A stretch of DNA of 63,839 nt, the filler included, from Folioceros fuciformis (lineage: Eukaryota): NCBI GenBank assembly GCA_049999805.1. It is 10 parts of 10 records of this genome, joined end to end, with 100 filler letters (N's around TTAATTAATTAA, not from the genome) between each part and the next. Parts side by side here need not be neighbours in the genome. Positions count along the whole stretch, not along the records: positions 6,928 to 13,255 come from JBNGIO010001876.1; positions 13,356 to 15,053 come from JBNGIO010001878.1; 8 more parts are not named here. One strand, given 5' to 3'. Shown piece by piece: positions 1-58,858 of the stretch. Positions within the stretch are counted from its first letter, which is position 1. Each line of letters starts with the position of its first letter. Under the pieces are notes generated by a model, which was given only the letters and a program-made list of their open reading frames with translations, searched no databases and was not told where the DNA came from. A program made the translations under genes and the position numbers.

Positions 1-2743
1 TCAAAGTTTGTTCTTGCAACTAGAAGGTCCGAGTTCAACTTATTGAACTTCTTCTTGAGCTCTAGATTTTCTTGCACTAGGCGATCTCGTTCCGCAATAC
101 AACTGGTATGATCGCTCTCTTGCAGCTGGAGCCTAGCGTTCACTTCAAGATTTTCTGTCCGAGCTTCTATCAAAGCCTTCTGCATTTCTGCCAGTCTGAT
201 GTCAAAGTCATCCTTCATTTGTTGCTGTTTCTTGTCATTTTCTTCAGCATCTAGCAGAGCTTTCTCTGCATCACATTTTGCTAAATCTAGGAGGTTTTGG
301 GCTTTCTGCCTATTGTTTTGTGCTGCATCCAGCTCTTGCCTTAGGTGCACAACGTTTTCTTCCAGTGAGGCCAACTTTTGCAAGGACTCGGACGACTTGT
401 TTTTGCCAATAAGATCTGACCACATGTTTCGGAGCTGAGCTATTTCAGCCATTATGCTTGAATCGTCCTCCCAAGCCTTTTTTTTTGGAATTGTCGGAAC
501 TCTTCTGACCTACCAAAGTAGAGGTTGAGTGAGGCTGACGTATACAGAGCATGGGTTCGTACTTCACGAAACCAGTTACAAGTCGCGCAGAGCAATCCAA
601 TGAATCGAAGGTGAGAAGTCAACTATGCCGCCATCGCACTGGAGGTCTCGTCAGAATAGAAGCATATGAAGAAGCCTCGCCTGATACGAAACAACTCTTC
701 CCCATGCAAGTATGTAACATCTTCGAGATAATTATTCTAGAGGTTGGCAGTCCCTGTGGTAAACTTAAAGCACAGTAGAGGAAACTCAAGAGTGAAATTA
801 AACCTTTTCAAAACACATTCCTCTAGATCCTTTAGCGCTTCTATAGCAGCATGGTTCTCCTTGTGAAATGTGTCATTTGCGTTGTGCAGCATTTCCCTTT
901 GAGTTTGGATTTCAAATCTTAGTTGCTTTTCCAATGCATCTTTGCTTGAAGCTTCGCGGAGCACTAACTCTTTCAGCATTAAGACTTCATTCTCTGCAAA
1001 ACTAATCAAAGCTTGTCATGCTGACACTCACTATTCTCTGCCGAGGATAGTCCCAATTGCCTACCAAACACCTTGCCAAAGTACTAAGCCTTAAACAAGC
1101 ATCCCAGGTGCTAGGTATGGCATCAAACATTGGTACTACTACGACTTTTGTTCACTTGCAGTTAGAGTAAATAGCAGCCGCATGTACTAGCTAGACGTCA
1201 TTGCGCCAGTACAGACACAAACTGCATCTTGAAAAGTAATACCAGAGAGCTGGGCACGCTGCAGATGTTCCAGCGAAGTTGCAGTGATTTTTTCCAGATC
1301 TGTCTGATACGAGGCCCACAAACTTTGAGCAACCCAGACTTTCACATTCTTCTCGGCAGCAAAAACCCATAGCATCCAGTCCACCTTCACCATGGCTCTC
1401 ACATACCTGTACCACACAAAGTGGAAACGCAACAGACTTCTCATCGTATAAAGGGATCAGATCAGAGGTCAAGCGTGAGGGAAACCGACCACATGAAACA
1501 CAGATTCAATCTAAAGAGTTGCAGTACCCTCCTTGGTCTCCCAGAGTGAAAAGAAGTTGATATTGAGAGCTGTCCCACACGTTCACCATGTGATCTTGTG
1601 AAGCACTCCAAACATGGGCTCCCATCGAAACGATACTGCACACTGGACCCTTATGTGCTCGAAGCTCCTTCCGGCAAGAGAGTTCTGCTATTCCCCAGAC
1701 TCTTATCGCTCCATCTTCGCTTCCACTCCACACCATGTCTTCGCCAACCCGGCACATGTAAAACACAGCCGCATCGCGGCCTGCCAAATGTAGCACTGAA
1801 ATTATGTACAATCGACTAGCATGCAGCTTTATGTCAATGAATCCATCACCGTTCCTGCAGATGGAGACATGCAACCACTTTCTTACCATTCATCAGCATG
1901 TGGGTGTCAGATATTTCATTGTTTCCCACGTCATCAGCATGTGATGTTATAGCAATACTAGACTCGTTTGAACAACTCCAGAGTTGCATCATGGGAGGGC
2001 AATTGGCTCCCGAAACCAATAGGAGATGCCTTACGAGCGTGTGGTGAAGGCCATACTGACCCAAAGGGCGTCCGCTGAGATCCCATTTTTTTATGTTGAA
2101 ATCAGCGCCCCCTGAGTAGATACCACCCTCAGCCATCAAGCATCAAACCTTGGAACAAACTGGAATGCTAGAGATAGAGACACAAATGAATCCGAACATG
2201 TACATAGTAATCACCAGACCAAACACATGCTGTCGCCACCGCAAAGCAATTTACTCCCCCAAGGTGAGCATGCCACATACTCCTCACTGTTTTGGTTTCC
2301 ACATCAACCGCAGCAATGTCACCACTAGCTATGCCAACCAAGATTTCATGCCCATTTGTGACCTTCTCCAGGACGTTAACTGCCGAAGTAAAATCTGCAA
2401 ACCTTTGTGAGCTTGCATCCTGCACAGGTAAGCAGCCGGCATGTGAGCACCTCATTTTTTTCCGCATAAGAGAGTCCGGATCTCAACTAATGTCTGGCGT
2501 GGTTATGACAGCTATAACCTTGAGGTTAGAATACACAGAATTGCGAAGTCAAAGGGGGAGAAAGCAGACCAAGCTGTTCCACTGCAAAACTAGTCCTTTG
2601 TTGTCACCAGTGAACAATAATCCCTTGACGGCACAACCGCATCGAACATGTTCTTGAAAGCTGCCGATGCATGAAACTGTCCCGAAAGACTTCTTGCCAT
2701 CAGTTGTTCGGACTAAATTCTTGTTCAAGATGTGTTCAGCCAT
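1..2743 (-). CDS. Multi-exon WD40-repeat protein with C-terminal coiled coil (3' end runs off window; start uncertain)
   Basis: Minus-strand exonic ORF pieces carry WD-like motifs: LFTGDNKGLVLQWN, WHAHLGGVNCFAV, IYSGGADFNIKKWD, VWSGSEDGAIRVWG, AHKGPVCSIV..VWSASQDHMVNVWD. They are followed by E/K/Q-rich helical segments (737-1009 and 1-510), with GT..AG introns between. Confidence 0.7.
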
Positions 2744-3639
2744 GTAACTAACTCACAGAGTGATCACAAATGTCCCTTACCGCGCAGGTTGTGAGGTTGT
2801 GAAGCGCTGGAGGTTAGAGGTCTCAACGCTTGAACCCCCAGGCCTGCTGCTAAGGATTCGTCCTCCACAAGTGGTACGGCCTTACCTGTCGTCGAGGACC
2901 GATGTGATCGCGAGGCCTGTTTCATCTTGATTCTTGTCGTCTACCCGGCTGACATTTGAGAAACAAACAATGTAACCCAAGGGACAATCGTTGAAAGGGT
3001 TCTTAAACCGATTGCAGGCGGTTACTACTCGGACCGCGATGCCGCATTCTTTTCGAGACAAGCACAATGCCGGTGAATTCCACCGGGCTCATTGCCAGCC
3101 CTGCTAGGCGCAAGAATAGATCAATCTAATGCCAACTGTAAGGCATCTCCGAGGCTATAGCATTGTCCACCTTTGAGCTGACCAGGAAGCGTGGGGCGGT
3201 CGCGGGCGCTCTAGGAGCCAAGCCATGGGCAGAACTCACGCTCGACAGCAGAAAACGACGCCTTACTACAAATTTCAGTAACAAGGCCGGCCATGCAGCA
3301 GGGGAAAGTCGCAATGAGAGCCAACATACAGCAAGAGGGCCCAGCACAATCTCCCTTGCATTCCCTATATCGAAGTTCGGCACTCTACAGTATGCAAGGA
3401 GTGGAAAGAGAATGATTTGTACTGAGTGGTAGCTACTACAGCTAGTAATAAAGTCAAGGGGTGGCTTCTAGAGAGTCGCCGACGGAAGATGTTGAAGCAG
3501 TGAACAAATGCATCATGATGCTCCGCCGAGCACTGGGCCCAGCAGAACCTTCGAAGACATCAACGCGAAGGCACTCTAATCCCACCGGCTAAACTACTTG
3601 CGGACGTCTCGTGTCCCACGAGGCCCAGTTAAGCGACCG

Positions 3640-5787
3640 ATGGACGACGGTTTCGACAAGGAGGGTGGCAAACCACTGACGGAAGGGAAAACAACAACTG
3701 ACAATAAAAGCATAGATGAAGATGAAGGCAGTATGAGGGGCAAATCAATCGAGACAGAAGAACTTTCGCTGCCGCTAGAGGTGAATTAATTCTAACATGA
3801 TTTAACGCAGTCCCTGAACTCAGTGTGATCACGCAGCTAATGCTTCATCTTCTTCATGAGTAGCGATTGGCAGCCATGCACGTTATAGCCTTCGGCAATC
3901 CCGGAGAAAAGACTAGTGTAATGCCTCCAGTTGACAACCTTTTGCAGGTTAGGCATTTGAACACCAACCAACTCTGACAAATGAAATGGCTGGTTGTTTT
4001 GGAAATTCTGACCTGCTTACGCTACAGGAAGCAACAGTGCAAACTGTTGACCTCAGAGCTGAAAACCAGGAGCTACAGAAGCGGGTCGTCTTGTACGCAA
4101 AGCGGAGGTCATCCATCAATGCGCAGCTATTTATGGAGGGACACGACACCGAGTATCAAGCTGTAAGCCTTGTCACCTGATTATTTGTGTTCACGGTGGC
4201 TTCTCGTTTATACAGGTTGCTGTAGCTTTCTAGATCATGTAACTGAGCAAGAGTAGAGGGCAATTTCGAATAGTCTAGAATCTATTGGCTCTAACCATGA
4301 AGGTATATTATGACAATTTTTCGTTATTCTATGGGGTAGAGCTTAATCGAGTGGGCAGAAACCAAATCTAAATTAGAGCACATGCGAGCGGATTATGAGC
4401 GTAGAACCGATGTCATGCGCGAGCAACTTGGAAAGAAAGAAATCGAGGCAGAAGAAGCCCAAGCAAACTTTCAAGCCTTAAAGTGGAAGGTGTTAGTGCT
4501 AGCGGACGGCATGCTTTGCCAATTTGTCTGGGCATTAATGTAGTAAAAAAACTCATTGACACTAACAACTACATGTGTTGTAATCAATACATGTGTTCAA
4601 ACTAACTTGAAATCTATATTTCGCACCAGGTTGCACGAGAAGCGGAGCACAGTGTTTATGGAAGGATGCTCTCGAGGTCAATGTTGGACAAGGTCTTCAA
4701 TGCCCGGACCCTATGCCATATCAGCAACCATTATTGGCCTGTAATTTTATTTTCTTCTTTTCTTGATTTCTAGAGTAGTACGTTTGCTAAATCTACCTTA
4801 CAAAGTGAGGGCTGTTCAATAATTGTTTCATGTATGAGGGGCCGTAGATGCATTTAGATGACAAGGAATTAGATTTGGAAAGGGAAGCAGCAAGAATCCA
4901 AGGAAGACAATTAAAGAGCCAACTTGCAAGGTTAGAACAAGCACTCAAGCGGAAAGATCAACTTCTAGGTGGCCTACACTTGGTGGACTATGAGCAGCTA
5001 AAAATGGAGAATGAGGTCATGACGGAGAAGGTTAGTTTTCATGCAGGATGTAGAAGAGCTGAAAGTTTCTAATCTTCCTTAACGGTTTGGTTTATGCTTT
5101 TCATGCCACTTAGCTCGCAACCAAAAATGAAGAGATCTCCAAGCTCAAGAAAAAGACCACATATGTTGTTCATGTCGTGACTCATCTAAGAGAGAAGTTG
5201 CAGCAAGTACAGAAAGATGTAGAGGTGATTTTTATATAGAATGACGTGGTCTCCTACAAAAGATGCCTATAAACTAAAGATGAGGTCTTACAATTGATTG
5301 CAGGTAGAATCTGAAGCACTAGAGGCAGTGGAAAGAGATTTGTTGAAAAGGCGTGGGGATTTGCAAGAAATTAATGCTCGTTGCACTGTCTTGCGATTGA
5401 AGAAATCTAGATTACAGGTGCTGATATTGATCATACTCTTCCTTGGTTGATGCATAGTACAAGTTCATTTGCAATAGCTCATTGTTGCAGAAGAATGTGG
5501 TAAATATCACAAACCCGATGTTGCTTGATGATTTGGAGCTTCATAAAGAGGAAGCTGAAGCTTTGGAGAAGAGAATTGGAGAATTGCAAAATCATTTCAA
5601 CCTATTGCAAATGCAAATCCATGAACAAACTGCTATTTTACGTGCTTACTCTCTTATTCCAAACATTATCCAGACGAGATCAGACCATGATGTAGGTAGA
5701 CAATCAAAGAGAATTGTAAAAGATTTTTTGAGATGGGGCGTTTATAGAAAGAGACCCATCACCAAGCACTGTCCATCAGCCTACTAG
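3640..5787 (+). CDS. CCDC96: CCDC96/CFAP184-like (DUF4201) cilium/basal-body coiled-coil protein, about 8 exons
   Basis: Exon 4848-5030 encodes GLHLVDYEQLKMENEVMTEK, then LATKNEEISKLKKKTT..VVTHLREKLQ, matching the CCDC96 signature. Other exons at about 3640-3780, 4028-4162, 4340-4489, 4630-4692, 5114-5224, 5304-5417 and 5491-5787 have GT/AG boundaries. The first exon is tentative. Confidence 0.8.
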
Positions 5788-6827: not shown

Positions 6828-6927
6828 NNNNNNNNNNNNNNNNNNNNNNNNNNNNNNNNNNNNNNNNNNNNTTAATTAATTAANNNNNNNNNNNNNNNNN
6901 NNNNNNNNNNNNNNNNNNNNNNNNNNN
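6828..6927. other. Artificial contig spacer (N44-TTAATTAATTAA-N44). Identical spacers at 13256-13355, 15054-15153, 24790-24889, 27238-27337, 29855-29954, 53504-53603, 58646-58745, 61850-61949
   Basis: All nine are exactly 100 bp with a six-frame-stop linker in the middle. Confidence 0.98.
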
Positions 6928-7555
6928 CCCTCTGCTGTCCAACCAGGGGGGTTGATGATGACGTGCTCACAAATCGAATTCCTAGTGGGACCCGTAACAA
7001 CCACATCAGCAACACAAACCTGTTCTCCCCTAGTGAAGAAAAGGTCGGCTCTAAGTGAAACCCCATTGCACAAAGTATATGGACGCTCCCTATACGGAAG
7101 AAACCCACACTCCCTAGCCATTGAGAACATAATATCTCGAACTGCATCATGAGTGGCAATGCGGTGCGCCCCAACGAGACAACGTGCCAAATGGGACCCT
7201 GTATCGACAATGGCAACTCCACAACTGCATGTAGAGAGAGAAAAAGCCAAGGGGTGGGCCAAACCTAAGCGAAATCTCATCGCGGTGGCGAAAGTTGCTG
7301 GTGCGATTCGAAACGCCTGAATGCAAGATCGAGCTAAAAGCCAAGAGCCCGCTCCTTTACCTAAACAAGATCGAATAAGAGCTCGAGAAGACCTAGGGAT
7401 GGATGAGTCTAAAAGAAGGGCTCTTAATGCTTGGCCATATTGCTTTGCTTTTCTAGGAGGGAGGCTTGAAGACCCTTTAACCCTTCCCTAGAAAAGGAAG
7501 TGAAAGGAGGTAGAGCCTCACGAGCCTCCAAAGGTAAAGAATCCCTCGCATGAAT
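6928..7555 (-). mobile_element. CRE-like non-LTR retrotransposon fragment (post-RT region, zinc knuckle, restriction-like endonuclease)
   Basis: Encodes RSCLGKGAGSWLL...MRFRLG...CSC..HLARC...THDAVRD...RADL...ADVVVTGP, the CxC/HxxxC knuckle plus the RxD..D RLE layout. Homologous to the copy at 38.3-39.8 kb. Confidence 0.75.
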
Positions 7556-7749
7556 AAGATAGATGTATTAGTCTATCTATTAGCATTTATGATTTGTTGA
7601 CATCCACTAGGCTATTGTTACTGAAAGGAACCATATCGATTGCTATTCTACTGGGCTATTATATCGATAGTATTGATGTAACATGTTTAAGTATTAAGAG
7701 AGTTAAATACCAGTAATTTAAAGTAGGAAATGACTTAAGAGAACCATAT

Positions 7750-8199
7750 TTATGAAAAGAAGTCTCGATATATGAAATTGGTAGGTTGTAGATATAGGAC
7801 TCTCTGGGTAGTGCCATAGGAAATTGAGTACTCTATGGGAATTACATACTGCCCTCGATATATAAGTTTAAGTCTATTTTCCATTATGGTGTACATATTC
7901 ATGTCATCATTGACAATTGCTAAGGCTCTCAAAGCTTGGAACATGACTATCAGATTATTGTGGATTGTTAGGATGTTGCTTGGAATAAAGGTGTTTAGAA
8001 GCACACCATCACGATGTGTAGCAGCTTGAATTTCATCGCAACAAAAACGTGTACTTTCGTTATGGGCATCAAATGCAACTAGAACTTCTTGGATTGCTCC
8101 CATGAGTCTTGTAAGTTTAGCTATTTGTTTGGGAATAGAAGTTGCTTGGTTCATCATCTCTTGGTACATATCATTCTTGTACTGTGAATGGCAAAGCAT
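7750..8199 (-). CDS. Unknown intronless ORF A, copy 1 (149 aa)
   Basis: Aligns without gaps to 10300-10776 over about 120 aa with mostly conservative changes (DGVLLNTF[I/V]PSNILTIH; RALAIV..DMNMYT). Confidence 0.6.
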   Translation of the reverse strand: MLCHSQYKNDMYQEMMNQATSIPKQIAKLTRLMGAIQEVLVAFDAHNESTRFCCDEIQAATHRDGVLLNTFIPSNILTIHNNLIVMFQALRALAIVNDDMNMYTIMENRLKLIYRGQYVIPIEYSISYGTTQRVLYLQPTNFIYRDFFS

Positions 8200-8298
8200 G
8201 CACTGTAAAGGGTAAGTTCTCGGAACCCATCATCTCCATCATTGTTACAAGTACTTTGTTTAGAATTCATGAAGTTTGGTTGTGTTGGAGTTTAGTTT

Positions 8299-8805
8299 TT
8301 ATACCTTCAAGTTGATATGTCCATTGGAGGCTCTCTCATAGTATCGATGCAAGTGTCGTAAAAGACTGGAGATCAATATAGGATACTCTTCTACTTCTGG
8401 TTCTTCACCTCTTATGAGATGTGCATAGAGTTCTGAAAAGCAATTGACAATATTTTGTATGTCACTTACCTCCTCTTCCAACTTGGTAATCGTCATTTGG
8501 ATTTCATTTCTTTGAGATATGAGCGCATTCAAATAGTTGCGCTTAAGATTTAGATGATGTAATGGAGCATTATTATGATCCATGTACGTAGTCCAGCTTG
8601 GTTTTAGAATTAGGAAAGGATACATGATATTTGAGAAAATCAATTCAATTGAGTAGGATGTGGGCTGCAAATGAATGTAGTTCTCACAACAATGACCACA
8701 AAGATCACAACAAGGATCTAGCCCTTGAGCATGGAAGGCACTTTGCTTTGCAAAACATATATAGGCTAGAATAGAACTTATAGTAGCCAATGCACTGAAA
8801 TCCAA
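8299..8805 (-). CDS. Unknown intronless ORF B, copy 1 (likely core about 95 aa from MDHNN, coiled-coil-like)
   Basis: Homologous to 10932-11219 (NY.N.L.SQRN...I..L.E.V.DI.NI.N.F.E....IRGEE....NG.I). Confidence 0.5.
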   Translation of the reverse strand: MDFSALATISSILAYICFAKQSAFHAQGLDPCCDLCGHCCENYIHLQPTSYSIELIFSNIMYPFLILKPSWTTYMDHNNAPLHHLNLKRNYLNALISQRNEIQMTITKLEEEVSDIQNIVNCFSELYAHLIRGEEPEVEEYPILISSLLRHLHRYYERASNGHINLKV

Positions 8806-9300
8806 CTTAGGTTATAGAAAGCTTTTCAAAGCACTTGAGCCAACTTAAATTATGAGAAACCTTGTAGTAATCAACACATGTTGTCCAACTTAGGTTGTTA
8901 GGACAAGCCTTTTAAAGCACTTGAGCCAACTTAGATTATGTGGAACCCTATAGTAATCAACACAGGTTGTCCAATTTAGGTTGCTAGGACAAGCTTTCTA
9001 AAACACTTGAACCAAGTCAAAATATGAAGGTCCTTGTAATACCCAATATAATACATCTGCCCGTAGGTTAGCAATAGCTTTTCAATGGCCAAGAACCTAG
9101 TTCCACGTTAGATATGAAGAATATCGCCAAGGTTCTCTGCAACCTTACTAAAGAGCACAATGAACATAGCAACTACTTCATCAAACTTAGGTTCGGATAG
9201 CTTGGTGGCCAAGCATTTGATCAGGCTTAGAAAATGAAAGAATATCACTTAGTGCCCATGAGCCTTGCTAGATAACACATGAACTTAGCTCAACCTAAGT
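8801..9300. repeat. Degenerate ~83-86 bp tandem repeat (core TCCAACTTAGGTT...AAGC(C/T)TTT..AAAGCACTTGAGCCAACTTA)
   Basis: Clear unit starts at 8801, 8884 and 8970, with weaker copies near 9060 and 9185. An equivalent block lies at about 11430-11800. Confidence 0.8.
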
Positions 9301-10299
9301 TTGGAAGAATCTTACAAACAATGCAAGGGTACTTAACTCAACTTTGTTGAGCTTGTCCTTCTTTCTATAGTAACTCCATATCCACATTGCAAAGAGCATA
9401 TTCTTTCCCTTGGCAACAAGTTGTGGGTCAAAATAGTGTAAGGATTATTTCACAATAGCCTACGACATTGATCAACGCTATCCTTCAAAATAGTCTCAGG
9501 ATTCCTTGACAATAACCCACAACATAGATCAATGCTATCATGACAATAGCATAGATATTGATTTGCGTGACTATTCCTTCCAGTGACAACAAGTTATAAG
9601 ACAACAATAGGTTAGTGGATGACAATAGACTAGTAGATAGTAATATATAGTCTAGTAGATCCGTTGTATTGACAACAAAAGGTTAGTAAATTTTAGAAAA
9701 TATTAGTTACTTAGTTTAAGTTATGTAGTACTTGTTATGTATACGGTTTGATGACTCAAAGACTTCGTTGAAAAATAACATGGAAAAACCCCATTTTCCT
9801 CAAAAAAGGGCAAATAATGCACAACGGTAACTGGATTGAAAGAGAATAGCCCCCCAAGGCTACTAAACCCTAAACCAAGACAACTTCGGCAAGCCTAGTT
9901 AAGTGGTGCCACTAAAGTAAGGAGACATGACAAAAGTGATTATCGAGCCTAAGGGGATATTGTTTATTTGAATTGTCCTCCAAGTTATATGTTGCGAATG
10001 CATATCTTGCTTTAGCAGTGGTTTCTTGCACTTCAATGACATGTGGTGATTGTTGTAGGGGGCTACTCTCAATTGGTGCACTATTATGTTAGAGGCATGT
10101 ATCAAAAATGTATATTAGTTGTTTCTTATTATTCAATAATTATAATATACATTGATGAATACCACACTTAGCAAAAAGTACTATTTTGTCTGAAGAAGTT
10201 TTAAGGTATTAAAAATCAGCAATTAATTATTAACATATATAAGTACTTAAGGACTTAAATGCTAACAATCATTTAAAGCACGAACAACACTTAGAAGAA

Positions 10300-10776
10300 C
10301 TATGTTAATAACAAGAAGCCTGGATGTATAATCTTGCCAGGTTGTAGATTTAGGACTCTCATGGCAGACCCATAGGGAATTGAATACAATATGGGTATTG
10401 AATATAGCCCTCTATTTATCATTTGAAGATGATTGTTCATTAGAGTGTACATATTCATATCTCGCTTAACGATTGCTAAGGCTCTAAAGGCTTTAAACAA
10501 AACTACCAGATGACAGTGGATTGTGAGGATATTACTTGGAACAAAGGTGTTTAGAAGCACACCGTCTTGAAGTATAGCAACTTCCATTTCGTTCAAACAA
10601 ACAAGTTTATCTTCTTCATGAGCATCTAGGGCAGCTAGAAAGTTTTGGAGTGCATGCATAATTTGAGTAAGTTTAACTAATAATCCTTGGCTAGAAGCTT
10701 TTCTTTTTATTAGCTCCAAATAAATGTCCAACTCCAAATATGCTTTATTATGGTCCTGTGAAGACAAATTGGGCAT
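10300..10776 (-). CDS. Unknown intronless ORF A, copy 2 (158 aa)
   Basis: Paralog of 7750-8199 with the frame intact. Confidence 0.6.
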   Translation of the reverse strand: MPNLSSQDHNKAYLELDIYLELIKRKASSQGLLVKLTQIMHALQNFLAALDAHEEDKLVCLNEMEVAILQDGVLLNTFVPSNILTIHCHLVVLFKAFRALAIVKRDMNMYTLMNNHLQMINRGLYSIPILYSIPYGSAMRVLNLQPGKIIHPGFLLLT

Positions 10777-10931
10777 AGAACAAGGTTAGGTACAGCCAAG
10801 CAAATGAATATGTTCTTCATGAGTTATAACATGTTAAAAGTTATGGTTCATGTTAGCCATAGAGAAATAGTTATCTCTCTATCATTGTTATAAGTACTTT
10901 GTTTTGAATTCATGAAGTTGGGCTTTAGTTC

Positions 10932-11219
10932 TTATACCTCCTCAATCTGTCCATTTCGGACTGTGTCAAAGTATTGAAACAAGTATAGACCTAGAGAGGA
11001 GAGTTGTGGACGACATGGTCTTGATTTCATTTCTTCACCTCTAATGACAAGGTCATCAACTTCAAAAAAGTAGTTCATAATATTCTTTATGTCATTTACC
11101 TTCTCTTTTAGGTAGAGAATGTTGCAATCCATTTTATTTCTTTGAGATTTGAGCCTGTTCACATAATTGTGATTAATATTGATCTGTAGATCTGTAAAAG
11201 CATGACCATCCATTTGCAT
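10932..11219 (-). CDS. Unknown intronless ORF B, copy 2 (95 aa)
   Basis: Paralog of the C-terminal part of 8299-8805. Confidence 0.5.
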   Translation of the reverse strand: MQMDGHAFTDLQININHNYVNRLKSQRNKMDCNILYLKEKVNDIKNIMNYFFEVDDLVIRGEEMKSRPCRPQLSSLGLYLFQYFDTVRNGQIEEV

Positions 11220-13551
11220 GATACATTAAGATCCAAGAACTAGGAAAGAGAGCACAATATTGGAGAAACTCAAGTTGATTGAATGGAATGTGGGATGCAA
11301 GGGAATGTACTGGTGATCACAATGCCCATAAAGGTCACAAGGACCATCCAACCCTTGAGTATGAAAGACACTTAAAACTAGCAAAGCATATAAAGGCTAC
11401 AACAAGCCTTATAGTTGTCAATGCACTTCATCCAACTTAGGTTATTGAAAGCCTTCCATGGCACTGGAGCCAACTTAGACTATGAGACATCAAGCTTGAG
11501 TGATCAATATACTTTATTCAACTTAGGTTAGGAGAAGCCTTTTAAAGTGCTTGAGCCATGTCAATCTATGAAGGTCCTTGTAATAGCCAATACACTTCAT
11601 CCAATGTGGTTTAGAAAAAACCATTTCATCACCAAGAACTTGATCGTACTTTAGATATGAAGAATATCACAAATGTTGCAACAGCGTTACTAGAGAGCCC
11701 ATGTACAATGAAGTGAGCCTAATAGTAGCTAACGACTTAAGTTCATCTAGCTTAGGTTAGGAAAGCCTTTAGAGAACCTAGCCCTTGACCCAACTTAGAG
11801 TATGAAAGAATATTACAAGGTTCTAGCAAGCCTTATCAGATAACACATGAATGTAGCTTAACCTAAGTTTGGAAGAATCTTACAAACAATGCAAGAGGAC
11901 TCAACTCAACTTTGTTGTCCTCGTTGTCCATCTACACTAATCGTTCTTCATACCCACATTACAGAGAGCATATGCTTTCCCTTGGCAATAAGTTGTGGGT
12001 GAAAATAGTGGAAGCATTCCTGAAGTGTTGCCTAGGACATGGCTCAATATTATCCTTCGAAATAGTGCAAGGATTCCTTGATAATAGCATAGAACATAGA
12101 TCAATACCGCCTGGGCAGTAATTTAGAGTATTGATTGATATGATTCTTACAATGACAAAAAGCTAAAGGACAAAAGTAGTGAACTAGTGGATGACAATAG
12201 GCTAAGTACATGGTATAGATAGTACAGTAGACCTATCTTATTGATTACCAAAGGTTAGTAGGTTCTAGAAAATAGTCATTACTTGGTATAAATTATGTAC
12301 TCAATTGATTATCAAGTTTCTTACTTGTTAAACCACATTTTATATGACAACTTTATTTTGTAGAAGAGTTGGAAACCTAACCTATGTACCGCTAAATGTA
12401 GAAGGGAACGCCCCAGTGAAGAGGACTAAAACAAAGGGGATGTTATGACATGGACTTACGGATTTGTCAATAGATATTATTCAGGCAATATTAGGTTAAT
12501 ATACAAAAAAAACAACGGGATATTCATAGCATAGATATTTAAGTATTATTTAACTAGTTGATCAAGATAAAGGGTAGCCATAGGGTATATGTGTAAGATC
12601 TAGGGACTATTTAGAACTTGAATTAGTCAATATCATCATTGTCATATAAAATATCTCATTGATAATAAAGGTAGAAATATTGTCCCACATCTTGTCCTCT
12701 TTCCCTCGCATCTTGTTAGCTTTGTTAAAATTCTAATTGGCTGTGTACGCGCTTAAGGGATGAGGAGTTTACCTAGTTCTTCTTTTAGTTTGGTGCCTTT
12801 GGTAGTTAGGCAATTAATCCTAGTTTGCAAGCTTATAAGCACAAGTTAATGTGATAAACCTATTTGCGGGCTTGTAAGCACAAGTTAAAGTGATAAGCCT
12901 ATTGTGGAGGCATAGTTTCTAAAGCTTAGTGCTTCTAAGACCAAGACCTTAGCCATAGTCAAACCTACATGTTCAAACAATTTTTAGATTCTAGCATTTT
13001 CTTACATGTTGTATCAAAAATATTTTTTATTAATTTATTTTAATAAAATTATTTTAAGAACATCAAGAATTTTAATAATTTTGCAAACTTTATATTATAA
13101 TTTTAAAAAATATAAAAATATACGATTATTATTTTAATTTTATAATCTACATCAATGAATACCACACTTAGCAAAAAGTACCATTCTGTATAGAGGAGTT
13201 TTGAAGTATAAACAATCAATCGTTAATTCTTAACATATATAAGTATGTAGGGAGTNNNNNNNNNNNNNNNNNNNNNNNNNNNNNNNNNNNNNNNNNNNNT
13301 TAATTAATTAANNNNNNNNNNNNNNNNNNNNNNNNNNNNNNNNNNNNNNNNNNNNGGCGAACGGCAGCGGCGTCGAGGGCGAAGACGAGAGCTGTTTGGG
13401 ATCCCGGCCGCAAGGTGGAATCTGATCTCAACAGAGGATTTAGGCTCAACGTATCATCCTAAATTGTGGACAGAAACGAGGGTAACAAAATCTAAATTAC
13501 ATTTCAACGATTTCTAACTAGCATTTTGGTTTATTTGCATTGATATTGAAC

Positions 13552-15053
13552 ATGGCGTCCTCAGAAAATGTCATGTTCAATATCGAAAAGTTAGATGGTA
13601 CTAACTTCTCGTTCTGGAAAGAACAAGTGTATAACGTTCTAGTACAGGAGAAGCAGATCAAGCCCATAAAGTTGCTAGGAGTGAAACCTATTAGCATGAC
13701 CCAGGATGAGTGGCAGGATCTAGATGAGCTTGCTAGGTCTACCATCATGCTAACATTGTCGAAGTCGGTCTACTTCAACGTGAAAGACAAGACCACAAGC
13801 TACGAGCTATGGCAGAAGTTGTGTGACCTGTACGAGAAGCAAAGTGCGGCTTCTCAGGTGTATTGGTTGAAACAACTGGTGGACTTGAAGATGAAGGAAG
13901 GGATGAGGATGTCCGATCATCTGAACGAGTTCAATACCATTTTCAGCCAGCTCTCATCTCAAGGTATCTCGTTCCCAGATTCCGTGAGAGCTATGTTTCT
14001 GTTGGTCACATTACTAGAGAGCTGGGACACCTTTCGTACAGCTCTGAGTAATTTCGCTCCTGCCAGTGGTCTTACCATTGTAAATGTCGAAGGTAGCCTG
14101 TTAACAGAGGAGGTAAACAGGAAGAATATGGAACCTTCGAAAGGTTCCAATGCCCTCATGGTGAGAGGAAGGTCCACTTCAAAGGGGAAGTACAAGGAGC
14201 GATGTTCTTTCCGTAGTAAATCTCGTAGTCGTAACAATGTTGAGTGTTACCATTGTCACAAGAAGGGGCACATCAGGAAGGACTGCGAGAAGTTCAAGAA
14301 GGACAAAGGAAAGGAGAAGAAGCAAAGCGACAACAAAGCAAGTCCGAGTACCAAGCCTAACGAGGTGAATTCTGTTGACGATGGAGATGTTCTTATCTCT
14401 TCTTCCTTCAATTCTGCACAACTGACGACCGTGGAGAGTCACTTATTCTCTAATTGGATAATTGACTCTGGAGCATCTTTCCATGTTACTCCGCATAGAG
14501 AGTGGTTTAGCACATATGATGCTACTAGGAAAGGATGTGTACGGCTTGGAAATAACTACGCATGCGAGATTGCAGGCGTTGGTGATGTATAGTTGAAGTT
14601 CGACAACGGATCTTCATTCGTACTGAAGGATGTTAGGCATGTTCCCAAGTTGGCTAAGAGCATGATTAGTGTAGGGCAGTTGGATGACGCTGGCTACCAT
14701 TGTTGGTTTGGAGATCGTTCTTGGAAGATCTCCAAAGGTTCTCTTGTGTTAGCTCGTGGATTGAAGTGTGGCACTTTGTAATCACTTCAGTAACCACTGT
14801 CAAGGATCATGTGATTTGTGTCACGGAACAGGAAAGTGTTCCCTTGTGGCATAGTCGGTTAGGGTATATGTCTCAAAAAGGAATGAAGATACTATCTCGT
14901 TTTGGTTACGTCCCTGCTTTTGACTTCTCCGATTTCTCCGTGTGTGAGCACTGTCTGTATGGGAAACAGACCAAGTCACCACATGGAGCAAGAGGTAAAC
15001 ACAAAAGTAAACCTCTTGAGTTGGTTCACAGTGACGTTTGTGGACCTATGCCC
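13552..15053 (+). mobile_element. Ty1/copia (Tnt1-like) gag-protease-pre-integrase fragment, disabled
   Basis: Motifs: IEKLDGTNFSFWK, CYHCHKKGHIRKDC knuckle, WIIDSGASFH protease, LWHSRLG..CEHC and LELVHSDVCGPM. Premature stops at 14590 (TAG; CAG in the paralog) and 14779 (TAA; TAC in the paralog). Confidence 0.95.
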
Positions 15054-15153
15054 NNNNNNNNNNNNNNNNNNNNNNNNNNNNNNNNNNNNNNNNNNNNTTA
15101 ATTAATTAANNNNNNNNNNNNNNNNNNNNNNNNNNNNNNNNNNNNNNNNNNNN

Positions 15154-17160
15154 TCGCCTGGCGAGGAGAAGCGGAGAGGCAGGGAGGTGGTGGAGAGCGT
15201 GCTGCTGGATCCGGAGGAGCCGGCGGTGGCGACTCCCTCTCGGGAGGAGATGAGAGCTCCCGTGTTGTCGATTGTGCAAGCCAGTGAAATTTGTGAGGTG
15301 GAAGAGGAGGAGGAGGAAGAGGAAGAGGAAGAGGAAGAGGAAGAGGATGTTTTCTTCGACGACGAGCTTAGCTTGCCTGTGGATTTCCCCCGCAGTGACA
15401 TCGATTTTAACCGCTTCTCTTTCGATGATGGCATCGGGTGCGGCAGCCGCTCTCTGGCCGGGAGGAGTGGTCGGAAATTGGAGCTGGTCTGTGTGGAGAA
15501 ACCGACGTTGGAAAAAACTGCGGCTCAGATCATGGCTGCGTTGCAGAAGACCGAGGAGGAGATCAGGAAGTTGGAGCAGATTGCTCTTGCGGAGAGTAGG
15601 ATTGCTTTCGCGGAGAGCAGGATGACGGGCGCGCCCGGGTGCGGGCTCATCCGACAGCGCTCTCATCCGGGGGGCTGGTTGGATGAGAGTCCCAGGCCGT
15701 CTGTAGTGGGGACGATGGACGACAGCTTGCTTTTCACTCCCAAGACGCCCAGCATTGAGGTGGAGCGGTCGCTGAGACGGGGCTCTGACCAGGACGGGGA
15801 GAGCCGGGCAGAGATGAACGCTTCTCTGTCCCGTCTTACCCATCGCGACCGGATGCTGCCGGCTGAAGCTGCCGGGACCAAGGAGAAAAAGTTTTACTTC
15901 AACAGCAGTTTTGTCGGCGACGAGATGGGCGGCCGAACTGGCCGTCTATCTGCAGCTGATGCTTTCGACGACGTTCCTCGGCGCCGGCATAGCGGGGACT
16001 ACGCTTCTGAGAGGGCCAAGGTGTTGAAGGCCAGCGAGCAGGCAGCCTCTCCGGAGATGAGAAGCGCTTGCTCCACTCCGGGAAGACCCAGCTTCACGCT
16101 CGACGAGAGCAGCTCTGGGCGGCTTTTCTCCATCGAGAAGCTGGACTCGGATTTCCCCAAGACTGCCTACTCGACCAGGCTGGCAGAGTCCAGGTCGCTG
16201 CATGACAGCCCGATCAGGAATCCGGCTAAGGACACCAGGAGAGTGTCGGAGCAGATGTTCGGTGGCTCTTCTCTCCAAGAACCAGCTCTGAATCCCGCTC
16301 CCCGAGTGCCCATCAAGCAGCTCGTGGAATGCTCCAACTGTAGGTGCCTGCAAGAGAAGCCATCGAGCAGCAGCAGCAGGATGCCCACCCCAGACCGGAG
16401 CGAGATATCCATGTCCAGAAGCAGCAGTAGCAAAGGTGGCCGGAGAATCTCGCAGCTGGCGAGAACAGAGAGGGGCTCTGACAGCCCTCTGCGGCACGAT
16501 AGCGACACCACTGCCCAGCCCAGGGCCGAGGGAATCAGAGATGGTCCGTCCAGGCATGACAGCCCTCTGAGGCGTGAGAAAGGAAGTGGGTCTGACAGTC
16601 CTCTCAGGAACGACAAGCCAGAGCCTCTGCAAGTGAAGCTGGCGGCCCCGCAGAGCCCACTCAGATCACAGGCTTCTCCTGCACGTCCCAGCATGTCCGG
16701 AAGCACTACTACCGGGAGGGAGTTCTCTGGCGGGGCGTCCCCTTCTCGCTCGAGACGGAGGGTCAAGGTCAAGCTCCGTCTCATGTCTCCTTTCCACTTC
16801 CTGCGCAAGCTCAAGGAGGTCTGTGCCCGCCTTATCCTTGCTGCGTCCTCCTCCGTGAAGCCGGAGTCTGTGATGGTGGACAACTGGAGTGCTGCGGCTG
16901 GCCGGGCCAGCACTAGCAGCACCTGGAGTTTCGTGAGCGCTGCTACTGCTGTGCCTGCCACTCCTGGTCGGGTGAGCGAGAGTGCGGCCGGCAACAGTCC
17001 CAGAATCAGTACCCGCAAGAGTTGCGTGGCCAAGAGCACGCGTGGTTCGCCCTACATCTGCTCGCCGGCGCTGAGCAGACACTCCTTCTACTCCGAAGCC
17101 ATCTCCGACTGCATCGAGTTCATCAAGAGGTCGTCAACGCCTGATACCAGAATTGTATGA
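15154..17160 (+). CDS. Long Ser/Pro/Arg-rich disordered protein with plant josephin-like-family C-terminal motifs (5' truncated by spacer)
   Basis: Uninterrupted GC-rich ORF of more than 657 aa with a poly-Glu tract and repeated DSPLR motifs. It ends in MSPFHFLRKLKEVCARL...SEAISDCIEFIKRSS. Confidence 0.75.
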   Translation, partial: SPGEEKRRGREVVESVLLDPEEPAVATPSREEMRAPVLSIVQASEICEVEEEEEEEEEEEEEEEDVFFDDELSLPVDFPRSDIDFNRFSFDDGIGCGSRSLAGRSGRKLELVCVEKPTLEKTAAQIMAALQKTEEEIRKLEQIALAESRIAFAESRMTGAPGCGLIRQRSHPGGWLDESPRPSVVGTMDDSLLFTPKTPSIEVERSLRRGSDQDGESRAEMNASLSRLTHRDRMLPAEAAGTKEKKFYFNSSFVGDEMGGRTGRLSAADAFDDVPRRRHSGDYASERAKVLKASEQAASPEMRSACSTPGRPSFTLDESSSGRLFSIEKLDSDFPKTAYSTRLAESRSLHDSPIRNPAKDTRRVSEQMFGGSSLQEPALNPAPRVPIKQLVECSNCRCLQEKPSSSSSRMPTPDRSEISMSRSSSSKGGRRISQLARTERGSDSPLRHDSDTTAQPRAEGIRDGPSRHDSPLRREKGSGSDSPLRNDKPEPLQVKLAAPQSPLRSQASPARPSMSGSTTTGREFSGGASPSRSRRRVKVKLRLMSPFHFLRKLKEVCARLILAASSSVKPESVMVDNWSAAAGRASTSSTWSFVSAATAVPATPGRVSESAAGNSPRISTRKSCVAKSTRGSPYICSPALSRHSFYSEAISDCIEFIKRSSTPDTRIV

Positions 17161-24789: not shown

Positions 24790-25484
24790 NNNNNNNNNNN
24801 NNNNNNNNNNNNNNNNNNNNNNNNNNNNNNNNNTTAATTAATTAANNNNNNNNNNNNNNNNNNNNNNNNNNNNNNNNNNNNNNNNNNNNCGCCCTGCACC
24901 ACAATTCCAGTCCATTACCTGCCGGGTCGACGGAAATCGCTTCAGCGCCTCCAGCTCGTCGACCTCCTCCATCGTCCTGCCCTCCTCTGCCAGACTACCC
25001 ATTGGCGGAATGCAATGCCACAACAGCAAAAATCAAGAGGGAAGCGCAGCCTCCACACAGCCCTGTGCTACCACAGGGTTCCCTTTTTAAGGAGACGGAA
25101 ATAATTTTAATCACGACAGCATCACCCGCCTATGTTACCCGCGTATGTTCACACCAAAGGACTGTTGTGCAAGGGAAACTAGCTAAAATTCTATTTTGTG
25201 GTTACAACCATCCAATAGGCTACCAGAGGATTTGATCGAGTAGGTGGAAGAAGTGTGCGGATTCCTTACCATTGGGTAGAGTAGGGTAATTAGAGACGTT
25301 AGCCACACGTTTCTCCCGACCCCCCAGTACTTCGACACATCCTAATGCACTCTGGAATTCGCTTCTGGCACAGCCACGTGTGTACTTTGATGCTGCCCTA
25401 ATGCGCACTATCAAATTCACTGCTCGACTCGACTCAATGTGTCGTCGTCAGTACGCTCACCTTAATGCTGCCCTGCCCTGCTCT

Positions 25485-25815: not shown

Positions 25816-27337
25816 TACTTTGCTCTGCTTCTAAATCTTCTGCCTCACTATGCCGCTTTGAAACCACCTACTAAGTTTTGAATACATCCTAAGCACGCAC
25901 ATACCATGTGTGCCTTAGAAACAACTCTACCAAGCTTCCAGAAAGGTTCACAATGGGCCCCTTTGAGAAGCCCTAATTCAGGCATCAAGGATACCCTAAT
26001 ATCCTTTTGATATGTTGCTCTTTGTACACCATACACAGAATGAGAACATTAGATAGGTATTCATTCCAAATACATCTTTCATGTATCATATCTTAATTCA
26101 CTTTCAATAAGTTGTTATATTCATACATAGTAATATTTTGTGACTGTAAAAAAAAAAGTGACCAATTTTAACCTATCTGTCACGCATATTGCTTTATCAT
26201 AGAACGAGAAGATTCCAAGTCATTTTATTGCACATATTCAATGTGTCTCTAGAATACTCTTATCTAATTTCAAATGCAATGCGATGGGAATTTAATATTG
26301 ATGCTCATTTCAAATCTCTTCTTAAATACATATAATGGAACACAAACATTTTATGTACTGCATTATGAGGACTTATTGCATGTGAAGCATGTCATAATCA
26401 TCTTTCAACATACTAAATATATCTAATCCAAGTATTGAATAGATGTTCATAACATCACTTATTTATCACCATGATTTTATAAAGAAAAAAATCTTATGAA
26501 AAACCCATCTACTACAGGACTTTATTATGAAAACAAAATGATGCGCAAAACCCATCTGCTTCAAGACAAGGGCAACAACCTTTAAAAGGGCAAAAAATCA
26601 TGGAAACTAAACTCTTACTGCTACATAAAACAGTTCTAAGACATAAGTTGTACAAATTACTTGAAAATTTTTCTCTTCCTAAAATACTTAAGTATGCATA
26701 TATCATTTAACTCATATAAAAAAAATTGATATGCATGTATACGTATGATACTTATTATATTATGCTCCACATTCTTTTAACTTTTTATTTAATTTTATTA
26801 TATATATATTTTTTAAAAATAATCTGGTATGTAGATGATGATAGAATACTTAATCTAAATGATAGACTTAACTGGTAAAGAGTTTTTGTCCTTGTATTAA
26901 CAGACTCATAGGGAATTTAGACTTAAAAGATGTTTTTAATCTTTTTATATTAATATCCAAAAAGAGCATGTTAACATTGTGTTAAATTTAACTATCATGT
27001 ATCTAAACATCTAGTTTTTTTATATTAATATCAATTTTTTTGAATTTTTTGAATTGTAGTTTATGTCCTTAATGACCATTAGAGGTAGAATTCAAGTTTC
27101 TAAAACCACTTATGTCCTGTTTTGGATCATGTGGTTCCTTCTCATCTATTATCACTTGTTAGTACTTGTTTCCCAATCGTTGTTGACAACCTCATAGGGC
27201 CATGTAGTCTCGCCCTTCCTTGTTATATTACTTCCTANNNNNNNNNNNNNNNNNNNNNNNNNNNNNNNNNNNNNNNNNNNNTTAATTAATTAANNNNNNN
27301 NNNNNNNNNNNNNNNNNNNNNNNNNNNNNNNNNNNNN

Positions 27338-29854: not shown

Positions 29855-30017
29855 NNNNNNNNNNNNNNNNNNNNNNNNNNNNNNNNNNNNNNNNNNNNTT
29901 AATTAATTAANNNNNNNNNNNNNNNNNNNNNNNNNNNNNNNNNNNNNNNNNNNNCTTCTAGTTGCTCTTACATAATCATGGACTCCACAAATTGGTTGCC
30001 TTCTCACTTCTCGTGGA

Positions 30018-38189: not shown

Positions 38190-39790
38190 GAAAGAGATAG
38201 AAATTCCATCTACCCCATAACAAGGGGAACAACCCTCAATGAGGAAAAGCCAAGAATGGGGACCTAGCCCCCTCGTCCGCCTAGCCTATAGCTCCTATCA
38301 CCCCCTAGATGTCATATTCAGGTACAAAGTATGGCTTACTTACCACCGGGGCCATTGAAGCCGCATTCGCCGTGCTTGATGCTGTTCGAAAAATCGTATT
38401 TGCCAAGGCCTTTTGTAGCGCAATCGAAACCAGTTGCCCGAAAAATGCCACCATGCCACATAGGGGAAGCCTTGCGCCGCTCCTATTGATGTGATGGGCC
38501 TTCGCGCAAGTCTTCAAAAACCTAGAAAAATCCTCACCCATGGCCCCGTGCGTTTCAATAGCAAGGGGGATGAACAAGTGGCCCTACTACATGGGCCTAT
38601 ACTTGCAAGTCTTCCTTGTCGCACTTTCTTCTGCTACCCAACCTGAGGGGTTGATAACGACGTGCTCGCTAATGCTTGTCCGAGTGGGGTGACAACCACA
38701 TCCGGTATAGAAACCTAGTCCCCCTTGGTTAGGAAAAGGTCTGCAATGAGGGAGACGTCGTTGAGCAGGGTATATGGGCGCTCCTTGTAGAGGAAGAAAC
38801 CACCCTCTTTGGCCAAAGAAAACATAACGTCCCTCACTGCATTATGGGTGGCAATGTGCCAGGTGGCTCCCGTGGTCATTGAGAGGGACCCCACAGCTAC
38901 AAAAAGAGAGAGACCAGGCCAACGACTGGACCAAGCCAAGGTGGAACCTCATCGTGCTAGAGAAAGAAGGTAGTGCAATTTGAAAAGCCTACATGCATGG
39001 ATAGGCCAACAGCCAAGAGCCAGCGCCCTTCCCCAAACAAGATCGAAGGCATGCCCAGATCTGCTTGTCAATGGAGGAATTTAGCATGAGGGCCTGCAGC
39101 TCTTGCCCATAATGCTTTTCCATGAGGGTGGCCTGAAGCCCCCTTAATTTCAAGACGTGCTTGTCAAAGTCCCTTAATTTGCAAAGAAAATCTAGGGATG
39201 GAGGCACAGTGTGGATGAGGTACCCGGGGCATTGCGCAAAGCAAGTGAAAAGGATGTCGTAGACCACCTGTGGGTCCCCAAGCTAATGAAGGTCCTCAAT
39301 GTCTGCCAAATCCTCCGTCAAAGCTGCATCCACAAATTCGCGGATCAAGTCGTGGGGGGGCCAACAGGGACCCCCAGGACACGGATCCCCAATGGAGAAT
39401 CGATGTTCCCCTTCGGAAATTGTAGAGATGGAATGATACCAGATGGAGACCAAATCTTACACTTAGAAATCTTGACTATTAGGCCTAAGCATAAGAGCTC
39501 CTTTGAGAAAAGCTCAAAGGCCTCCCTAACCTTATCCCCTGGACCCAGGAGATGGGTGTAATCTACCACAGATGGGGTAGCCCATCTGCGACTAATGAGC
39601 TGTAAGAACACCTCACCCACTGAGATGGGGCGCACACCCGGGGTGGGTTTCTTCAAAGCAAGCAGCCTGCTAGTGCCCAGATTTAGAGCAATTCGAGGGG
39701 GAATCTCACCTTACGCCACAGCAACTGCCAAGGAAAAAAGCTCAAAGAAGACAATATGAAAGCCATGTTGCTCTAACATCCCAGGGTAAG
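38190..39790 (-). mobile_element. CRE-like non-LTR retrotransposon, 5'-truncated and internally deleted
   Basis: RT motifs KKP..GVRPISVGEVF and GL.V..SKCKIW..GIRVLGVPVG. Also GKGAGSWLL, ATHNAVRD, IADL, and the C-terminal FIPLAIETHG...SIALQK RLE tail. Confidence 0.8.
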
Positions 39791-53251: not shown

Positions 53252-53603
53252 TATTTTGTCCCATCTTAAATGACATACATACTTTTGTTTTCATCTACAT
53301 TTCAAAAAGTTTTATCATATGACAAATATAATTAAAAAAAATCACTGTGACTAGTTCCAAAGTTTATAAAGCTTATAAAGAGAACTCTCAATGTGTTGAA
53401 TGCATTGATGTTTTATGGGAAGAGAATTAAATAAATAGAGTATAATTTTTAGAAAATAAAATTTATATATACATCTATCTTCATATTCATATTGAATTTC
53501 TAANNNNNNNNNNNNNNNNNNNNNNNNNNNNNNNNNNNNNNNNNNNNTTAATTAATTAANNNNNNNNNNNNNNNNNNNNNNNNNNNNNNNNNNNNNNNNN
53601 NNN

Positions 53604-58570: not shown

Positions 58571-58858
58571 GGGTGCCAGGCGCGGGGCGCCAAACATGGC
58601 TACCGCGGGAGCGCCAGGCCCCCGGCCACCCTGGGGGCGCCAGACNNNNNNNNNNNNNNNNNNNNNNNNNNNNNNNNNNNNNNNNNNNNTTAATTAATTA
58701 ANNNNNNNNNNNNNNNNNNNNNNNNNNNNNNNNNNNNNNNNNNNNGTCTAGGTGCGGTGCACAGTTCATCTATTGAAGCCCAGCAGCTGGCAGCTGGCAG
58801 CTGGCAGCTGTCGTTCTCCGTCGTCGGGCAACGGGGCCGCATTACGCAGTGGTCAAGA

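Follow-up and report, generated by a model that had tools for sequence, protein, structure and literature searches.

A putative lineage-specific gene in a small head-to-tail tandem array of Folioceros fuciformis

We analysed a 63,839-nucleotide stretch of DNA (the window) from the Folioceros fuciformis assembly GCA_049999805.1, in which the contig at positions 6928–13255 (6328 bp, 36% guanine plus cytosine (GC)) carries a tandem repeat with two minus-strand open reading frames (ORFs), termed A and B. The evidence leans, by a modest preference, towards a lineage-specific (orphan) nuclear protein-coding gene in a small head-to-tail array rather than a mobile or viral system of a new kind. According to this interpretation, head-to-tail duplication, most likely by unequal crossing-over, would have produced an array of at least three units of 2.6–3.0 kb each. 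Every unit would be read on the minus strand, beginning with ~0.9 kb of conserved upstream non-coding DNA that holds minisatellites, after which exon 1 (ORF B, 92–93 codons from a conserved ATG) would encode a long helical hairpin, a putative phase-0 GT-AG intron of 123 or 182 nt would follow, and exon 2 (ORF A, 143–151 codons) would complete a single protein of ~236–243 aa. The duplicates appear to be old (dS ~0.5), with selection proposed to keep the frame and constrain the core of exon 2. The initial annotation of this contig had described open frames, tandem amplification and the lack of a recognisable domain as signs of a possibly undescribed element or gene family; a protein-coding unit kept open, amplified in tandem, without recognisable domain or homologue and hence of an undescribed gene family is supported.

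Two diverged units on a single contig

The A/B repeat is confined to one contig, and a tblastn search with A and B against the whole window recovered exactly two copies of each. ORF A occupies 7750–8199 (149 aa) and 10300–10776 (158 aa), and ORF B occupies 8299–8805 (168 aa, with a core of ~93 aa) and 10932–11219 (95 aa), all on the minus strand; B lies upstream of A in both copies, with B-to-A gaps of 99 and 155 nt. A1 and A2 align without gaps over 139 residues, at 53% identity and 69% positives; for B1 and B2 the figures are 41% and 63% over 81 residues. At the nucleotide level the units are 70–74% identical over ~2.05 kb (7679–9727 against 10231–12299) at a spacing of ~2.55–2.63 kb, and the spacers between the aligned blocks do not align (37–57% identity in global alignment). 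Intronless ORF pairs in at least three tandem units had been proposed initially; the coordinates and the tblastn search bear out the ORFs and the repeat, whereas the complete units in the window number two, the third being represented solely by a 128-nt tail at the contig end.

Read in the 5′ to 3′ direction on the minus strand, copy 1 begins with a conserved upstream non-coding block (8812–9727), which is 74% identical to the corresponding block of copy 2 (11404–12299, minus strand) with 12 indel events. An upstream extension of the B frame (8584–8811) follows, which is probably 5′ untranslated region (UTR) because the homologous frame of copy 2 has an in-frame TAA. The core of ORF B, the proposed coding part of exon 1, covers 8305–8583 (93 codons from the conserved ATG), and is followed by the proposed phase-0 intron of 123 nt (8182–8304, GTATAA...TCACAG), which includes a 47-nt element described below. 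ORF A, the proposed exon 2, covers 7750–8181 (143 codons plus the stop at 7750–7752), and the 3′ flank at 7679–7749, a putative 3′ UTR, is 73% identical to 10231–10299. An inter-unit spacer (9728–10125) that is not alignable with the spacer of unit 2 separates the two units. Copy 2 has the same minus-strand order, with ORF B as the proposed coding part of exon 1 at 10938–11213 (92 codons), a proposed phase-0 intron of 182 nt at 10756–10937 (GTATAA...TCACAG) and ORF A as the proposed exon 2 at 10300–10755 (151 codons plus a stop). Downstream of A2 lies a tail element (10126–10253, minus strand) that is 80% identical to the tail element of the third unit (13126–13253, minus strand); the contig ends at 13255, and the genes of the third unit would sit past that end.

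The AT-rich spacer of unit 2 (12300–13125) contains a 39-bp repeat at 12815–12903. Tandem Repeats Finder (TRF) reported this repeat as a minisatellite of 2.3 copies, together with two others in the upstream block, one of 86 bp with 2.7 copies (8801–9027) and one of 57 bp with 2 copies (9428–9539). The 86-bp array has one copy more in unit 1 than in unit 2. Coding sequence amounts to ~0.7 kb per 2.6–3.0-kb unit, or about a quarter.

Logan contigs of two DNA runs, which may be the assembly's own source data, match this arrangement without differences, and one of them (2151 nt) spans the unit-1 spacer through A2 and B2. Other run contigs pass from one unit to the homologous position in the other (8036 to 10616 and 11822 to 9268), and a run contig of 1849 nt is ~83% identical to 11631–12148. 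The unit-switching contigs and the 83%-identical contig together indicate that the genome holds at least one more diverged unit.

The long frames exceed what chance would give. Stop-to-stop lengths reach 170, 161 and 159 aa, and when the 5.7-kb AT-rich part was simulated at matched composition, just 4 of 500 runs gave any ORF of at least 150 aa. If the unit were instead a long-period satellite without coding function, or a non-autonomous transposon of low copy number, with ORFs arising by chance from composition, this would account for the tandem layout with its internal 86-, 57- and 39-bp minisatellites, for the 2–4-fold raised read depth in the upstream block, and for the shorter B frame of copy 2, a 97-aa ORF that lies within chance when taken alone (215 of 500 simulations gave at least 97 aa). 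Against this stand the three ORFs of 159–170 aa, the conservation of both frames between copies that differ at 28–36% of sites, and the search for repeat termini, in which no terminal repeats and just two weak inverted pairs turned up. We regard this explanation as highly improbable.

The ATG from which B starts is conserved (8583 in copy 1, 11213 in copy 2); the only further ATG upstream in this frame is peculiar to copy 1, where the sequence reads 'NIM' against 'NIV' in copy 2. A search of the contig for other conserved ORFs found none, and besides A and B no shared frame exceeds 50 codons. Three other runs of at least 30 codons are open in both copies: the B extension (50 codons), one of 34 codons within the upstream block, and one of 42 codons that overlaps A out of frame. 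Further upstream exons were considered and rejected, as only the A and B frames are open over a long distance in both copies.

Coding constraint and exon structure

Neutral divergence was simulated by mutating the exons with the substitution matrix measured from the unit's own non-coding parts. B and A both stayed open in only 0.0008–0.0012 of 5000 runs, with ~6.4–6.5 new stops expected. The exons contain 2 indel events in 705 aligned nt, of 3 and 18 nt and thus both multiples of three, compared with 18 events in ~1006 aligned nt of the upstream block, intron and 3′ flank, 12 of which are not multiples of three. GC content by codon position follows the order GC1 > GC3 > GC2 in all four ORFs. 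A 48-codon core of A (DGVLLNTF.PSNILTIH...RALAIV..DMNMYT) has a ratio of nonsynonymous to synonymous substitution rates (dN/dS) of 0.33, with differences at the three codon positions of 10/5/17. The simulation, the indel pattern, the codon-position composition and the dN/dS of the A core together indicate that the frames are kept by selection. A probability of ~0.001 of staying open, the lack of frameshifting exon indels and the value of 0.33 in the A core are the coding-frame selection expected of a real gene, and differ from the lack of coding constraint expected of a non-coding satellite.

Several observations nevertheless weigh against a constrained spliced gene. By the NG86 method, A has a dN/dS of 0.66 and the B core one of 0.95, with 0.76 for both combined; the corresponding maximum-likelihood values are 0.73, 1.37 and 0.90, indicating weak constraint overall. 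Differences by codon position (74/57/72) are not significantly uneven (p=0.28). The exons are 64% and 72% identical at the nucleotide level, as against 74% for the upstream block, 77% for the gap and 73% for the 3′ flank, although the placing of gaps may overstate the non-coding identities; with the exons below their flanks in conservation, something other than the protein might hold the unit together. Copy 2 carries a stop in the B upstream extension that is open in copy 1. The AlphaFold2 model of A, built from a 2-sequence alignment, has a predicted local distance difference test (pLDDT) score of 45.8 and is too poor for a fold search. With regard to the exon structure, each A copy has its own in-frame ATG 5–6 codons upstream of the proposed acceptor, so that A may be translated separately from its own start; GT and AG dinucleotides near the frame ends are individually not rare; and the splice model draws on two copies that are 70–75% identical in any case.

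Some of these values are what would be expected of a decaying relic. The unit would then derive from a dead gene, transposable element (TE) or viral insertion, a piece of which was duplicated long ago and encodes nothing any more, its open frames surviving from a coding ancestor. Such a relic would be consistent with the dN/dS of 0.76–0.90 for A and B together and of 0.95–1.37 for B, with exons that are no better conserved than the flanks, with the copy 2 stop in the B extension, and with the lack of a homologue and of a confident fold for A. It is difficult to reconcile with the neutral simulation, which gives a probability of ~0.001 that both exons stay open, with the count of frameshifting indels (0 in 705 exon nt versus 12 in ~1006 non-coding nt), with the dN/dS of 0.33 in the A core, or with the codon-position composition preserved in all four ORFs. 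On this evidence a relic is unlikely.

The claim that substitutions are mostly conservative was overstated, given the codon-position differences of 74/57/72 and the overall dN/dS of 0.76. The NG86 value falls from 0.76 overall to 0.33 in the A core, with the frames intact in both copies. Outside that core the protein diverges almost at the silent-site rate, and we conclude that the greater part of it can change freely or is being driven to change. Exons that outpace non-coding DNA in divergence while the frame is kept could mean diversifying selection.

The relation between the two frames is most simply described in terms of splicing. The B frame ends in AAG/GTATAA in copy 1 and GAG/GTATAA in copy 2, its stop being the TAA within the motif, and in each copy a pyrimidine-rich TCACAG precedes the entry into the A frame. 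The homologous donor and acceptor pairs (8304/8182 and 10937/10756) are both in phase 0 and would remove 123 and 182 nt, and the putative exon join is stop-free in both copies, giving products of 236 and 243 aa. GTATAA is the sole GT within the last 50 nt of B1, and the proposed splice sites enclose the gap's large indels, of 10, 46 and 24 nt. For a nuclear gene of a eukaryote, 99–155 nt between the frames is a tight fit for both a terminator and a promoter. Judging from these sequence features, B and A are most likely exon 1 and exon 2 of one putative spliced gene, which is the simplest reading for a eukaryotic nuclear genome. The term 'intronless' given to these ORFs at the outset is consequently doubtful in view of the conserved phase-0 GTATAA donor and TCACAG acceptor of both copies, and a two-exon gene with a phase-0 GT...AG intron and open products of 236 and 243 aa fits more simply than an 'operon-like' pair. 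The two frames probably are exons of a spliced gene, an outcome that the initial annotation had set against its own proposal, though the gene is not an 'ordinary' known one. A run guessed to be RNA (X4) contributed four short pieces of less than 95% likeness on the contig and is silent on expression.

The best-conserved stretch of the unit is the 47-nt element, which lies inside the putative intron on the minus strand (8233–8279 and 10876–10922) and is 91% identical between the copies. No second copy of this element was found elsewhere in the window, including upstream of B, and the idea that the gap and the DNA upstream of B have this promoter motif in common was dropped on the ground of its single occurrence per unit. 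Possible roles for the element are those of a splicing signal, an internal promoter or an upstream ORF. It starts a short conserved mini-ORF (MNSKQST.NND).

This element is also relevant to a different arrangement, in which B (~93 aa) and A (~150 aa) are two separate small proteins with their own ATGs, made from bicistronic or closely spaced transcripts of a virus or mobile-element module amplified in tandem. The in-frame ATG 5–6 codons before the acceptor in both A copies and the stop at the end of both B copies would suit two proteins, the 91%-conserved 47 nt in the B-to-A gap could serve as an internal promoter or re-initiation element, and AT-rich orphan ORFs resemble many viral ORFans. 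However, bicistronic nuclear genes are generally rare in plant-like eukaryotes, and the gap holds a canonical, conserved and phase-compatible GT...AG pair; moreover, ~0.7 kb of coding sequence per 2.6–3.0-kb unit is unlike dense viral DNA, viral relatives and PHROG or Pfam families are lacking, and read depth is low. We consider two separate proteins of this kind distinctly unlikely. Very unlikely, in our view, is a more specific form in which B and A are separately translated partners in a module that amplifies itself and diversifies quickly (a selfish pair of the killer/antidote type or a domesticated viral pair, for example), its coding parts outpacing their own flanks in divergence, with the 47-nt element driving the second protein. 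Such a two-partner module, if true, would mean that a plant-like nuclear genome harbours a compact system of two genes not described before.

Homologues, predicted structure and copy number

A phmmer search with A against 1.84 billion representative proteins gave 0 matches, and neither A nor B matched a word-indexed set of 5.8 billion proteins. The phmmer search returned not even a self-match, and the libraries may hold few proteins from relatives of the source organism; 'orphan' may thus only mean 'unsampled lineage', which is a further point against a truly lineage-specific gene. Pfam has no family for A, and for B only PF22709 was reported, below threshold (E=0.009–0.023, 15–16 bits against a cut-off of 27), which we took as coiled-coil noise. 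Nothing better than E 0.04 was found for A or B among the PHROGs. Pattern matches were not confirmed in any of 107 cases in a viral collection of 2.9 million contigs, nor in any of 182 cases in a metagenome contig collection. For A, the ESM Atlas yielded no usable match and the best hit in a PDB profile search had E=0.6; Rfam gave 0 matches at E ≤ 1 on the A/B contig. No homologue outside the lineage was therefore detectable in the libraries searched, whose coverage of relatives is uncertain.

The AlphaFold2 model of B has a pLDDT of 85.7 and consists of two helices, at residues 5–57 and 66–86, that form an antiparallel hairpin of 53- and 21-residue helices. Foldseek comparison of this model with the PDB gave no match at E ≤ 0.001, the top matches being designed proteins, and PDB profiles returned only generic coiled coils for B, weakly including prefoldin (E=0.0035). 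These matches reflect composition and shape and not family membership. The low-confidence model of A nominally comprises five helices and a C-terminal β-hairpin. Prediction of an A+B complex gave a score of 0.01, which is evidence neither way. As a guess from the modelled hairpin, the protein may oligomerise or act as an adaptor via exon 1.

Read depth distinguishes the units from the DNA that adjoins them. In counts that cover copies at least 80% alike, the depth in the DNA runs was 8–13 over the units and 30–37 in parts of the upstream block, where it was raised 2–4-fold in the bins 9249–9459 and 11570–11991. Run contigs that match the window exactly have a depth of 8–12. Over 6928–7560 it was 1860–4950, dropping ~400-fold at 7546, and loose ends clustered at 7546/7547. 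The high-depth DNA corresponds to the 5′-truncated tail of a high-copy non-long-terminal-repeat retroelement resembling a long interspersed nuclear element (LINE) (6928–7546, minus strand), whose open frame runs from 7487 to 6930 and off the contig end. This LINE-like tail is a separate insertion that does not belong to the unit, and on that side the array stops at it. A and B as part of this LINE was an assignment that we rejected, in view of the ~400-fold depth drop at 7546 and of the LINE frame there being the C-terminal end of its long ORF. The C-terminal ORF of the LINE-like element is Cys/His-rich, and Pfam reported no significant family for the tail fragment. A related copy at 38629–39117 (minus strand), with 45% aa identity, adjoins an ORF at 39345–39710 (minus strand) containing an 'RPISVGE' stretch, which we take to be reverse-transcriptase-like.

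The other nine contigs of the window contain no A/B copies, and a search for long terminal repeats (LTRs) and terminal inverted repeats (TIRs) around the units found only two weak inverted pairs (31 and 27 nt) and no terminal repeats. Pfam detected no TE domain in A or B. The units accordingly have neither the high or dispersed copy number of a transposable element nor its terminal repeats or protein domains, and an endogenous viral element is likewise not indicated, with no viral homology and no hallmark viral gene on the contig. The idea of a 'virus/transposon-derived module' finds no support in these results: no Pfam or PHROG family, no relative among viral contigs and no LTR or TIR was found, and the depth of 8–13 contrasts with 1860–4950 in the LINE tail.

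A further DNA run of the same sample (X3) differs from the assembly almost exclusively by C>T changes, at 384 sites, and G>A changes, at 308, and so looks bisulfite-converted. All 15 of the listed C positions at 7573–7710 read T in this run, which hints that the DNA just downstream of A1 is unmethylated.

Other contigs of the window and relation to known systems

The window is a chain of ten separate unplaced contigs of 1.7–23.5 kb each. They are joined by 9 identical artificial linkers, each consisting of 44 N, TTAATTAATTAA and 44 N, that act as spacers at 6828–6927, 13256–13355, 15054–15153, 24790–24889, 27238–27337, 29855–29954, 53504–53603, 58646–58745 and 61850–61949 and carry a stop in all six frames. 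Findings that span the linkers, or that compare across them, are for this reason unsafe. The A/B contig nevertheless belongs to the same genome as the other pieces, judging by its first 620 bp, which are the retroelement tail with a diverged copy at 38629–39117 on another contig.

The other pieces of the window have a GC content of 37–55%, compared with 36% for the A/B contig. A contrast between AT-rich cassettes and GC-rich host genes, drawn at the outset, is correct as regards composition; as a statement about neighbourhood it does not stand, because the window consists of joined contigs on which the genes are not shown to be adjacent, and the contrast is uninformative in that respect. On contig 1, two coiled-coil-rich ORFs on the plus strand (4848–5072 and 5482–5787), ~400 nt apart, resemble exons of a spliced host gene. 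These exon-like ORFs sit in DNA of ~38–43% GC, so the host genes are not uniformly GC-rich. Elsewhere, a 657-aa open frame at 15187–17160 (plus strand) is GC-rich (53–62%) and Ser/Arg/Pro-rich with an acidic Glu run at its start, and is probably a low-complexity host exon. The contig at 13356–15053 carries a Copia-type gag (PF14223, E=2e-32) followed by a Pol β-barrel domain (PF22936) at 13540–14592 on the plus strand. This frame runs on in shifted frames to the contig end, identifying an LTR retrotransposon fragment on its own small contig.

Among known systems, the A/B gene most closely recalls plant orphan genes, which a review describes as short and fast-evolving, with few exons and an atypical GC content (PMC9305701). 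The A/B protein is similarly short, with few proposed exons, low GC and fast evolution, and a gene without a detectable homologue in a local tandem array fits the orphan-gene picture; its orphan status holds against the libraries searched, which perhaps lack close relatives. With the accessory ORFs of TEs (ORF1-type or gag-like coiled-coil proteins) it shares a coiled-coil-like N-terminal part, AT-rich DNA and a position next to a LINE fragment and minisatellites. It differs from them in having no TE domain or termini, in a depth ~400-fold below that of the adjoining LINE, and in the sharp LINE boundary at 7546, which lies outside the unit.

Endogenous giant-virus-like or pararetrovirus-like insertions in plants are AT-rich and carry close-set same-strand ORFs without known domains, as seen in A/B. 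Unlike such insertions, A/B has no relative in 2.9 million viral contigs, is only about a quarter coding, shows intron signals, and is accompanied by no hallmark viral gene on its contig. The two antiparallel helices predicted for exon 1 are reminiscent of helical hairpins and coiled coils such as prefoldin, the arm of seryl-tRNA synthetase and designed bundles, but exon 1 has no Foldseek match at E ≤ 0.001.

The protein family is undescribed, while the phenomenon, an orphan gene in tandem, is common. Two features of the array stand out, namely exons that diverge faster than the surrounding non-coding DNA, and a best-conserved stretch of 47 nt that lies within a putative intron. If the interpretation as a spliced orphan gene is true, the array would add another small tandem family of fast-evolving, lineage-specific genes and would leave the general picture unchanged; it would help in the annotation of this genome and offer a candidate for the study of young genes.

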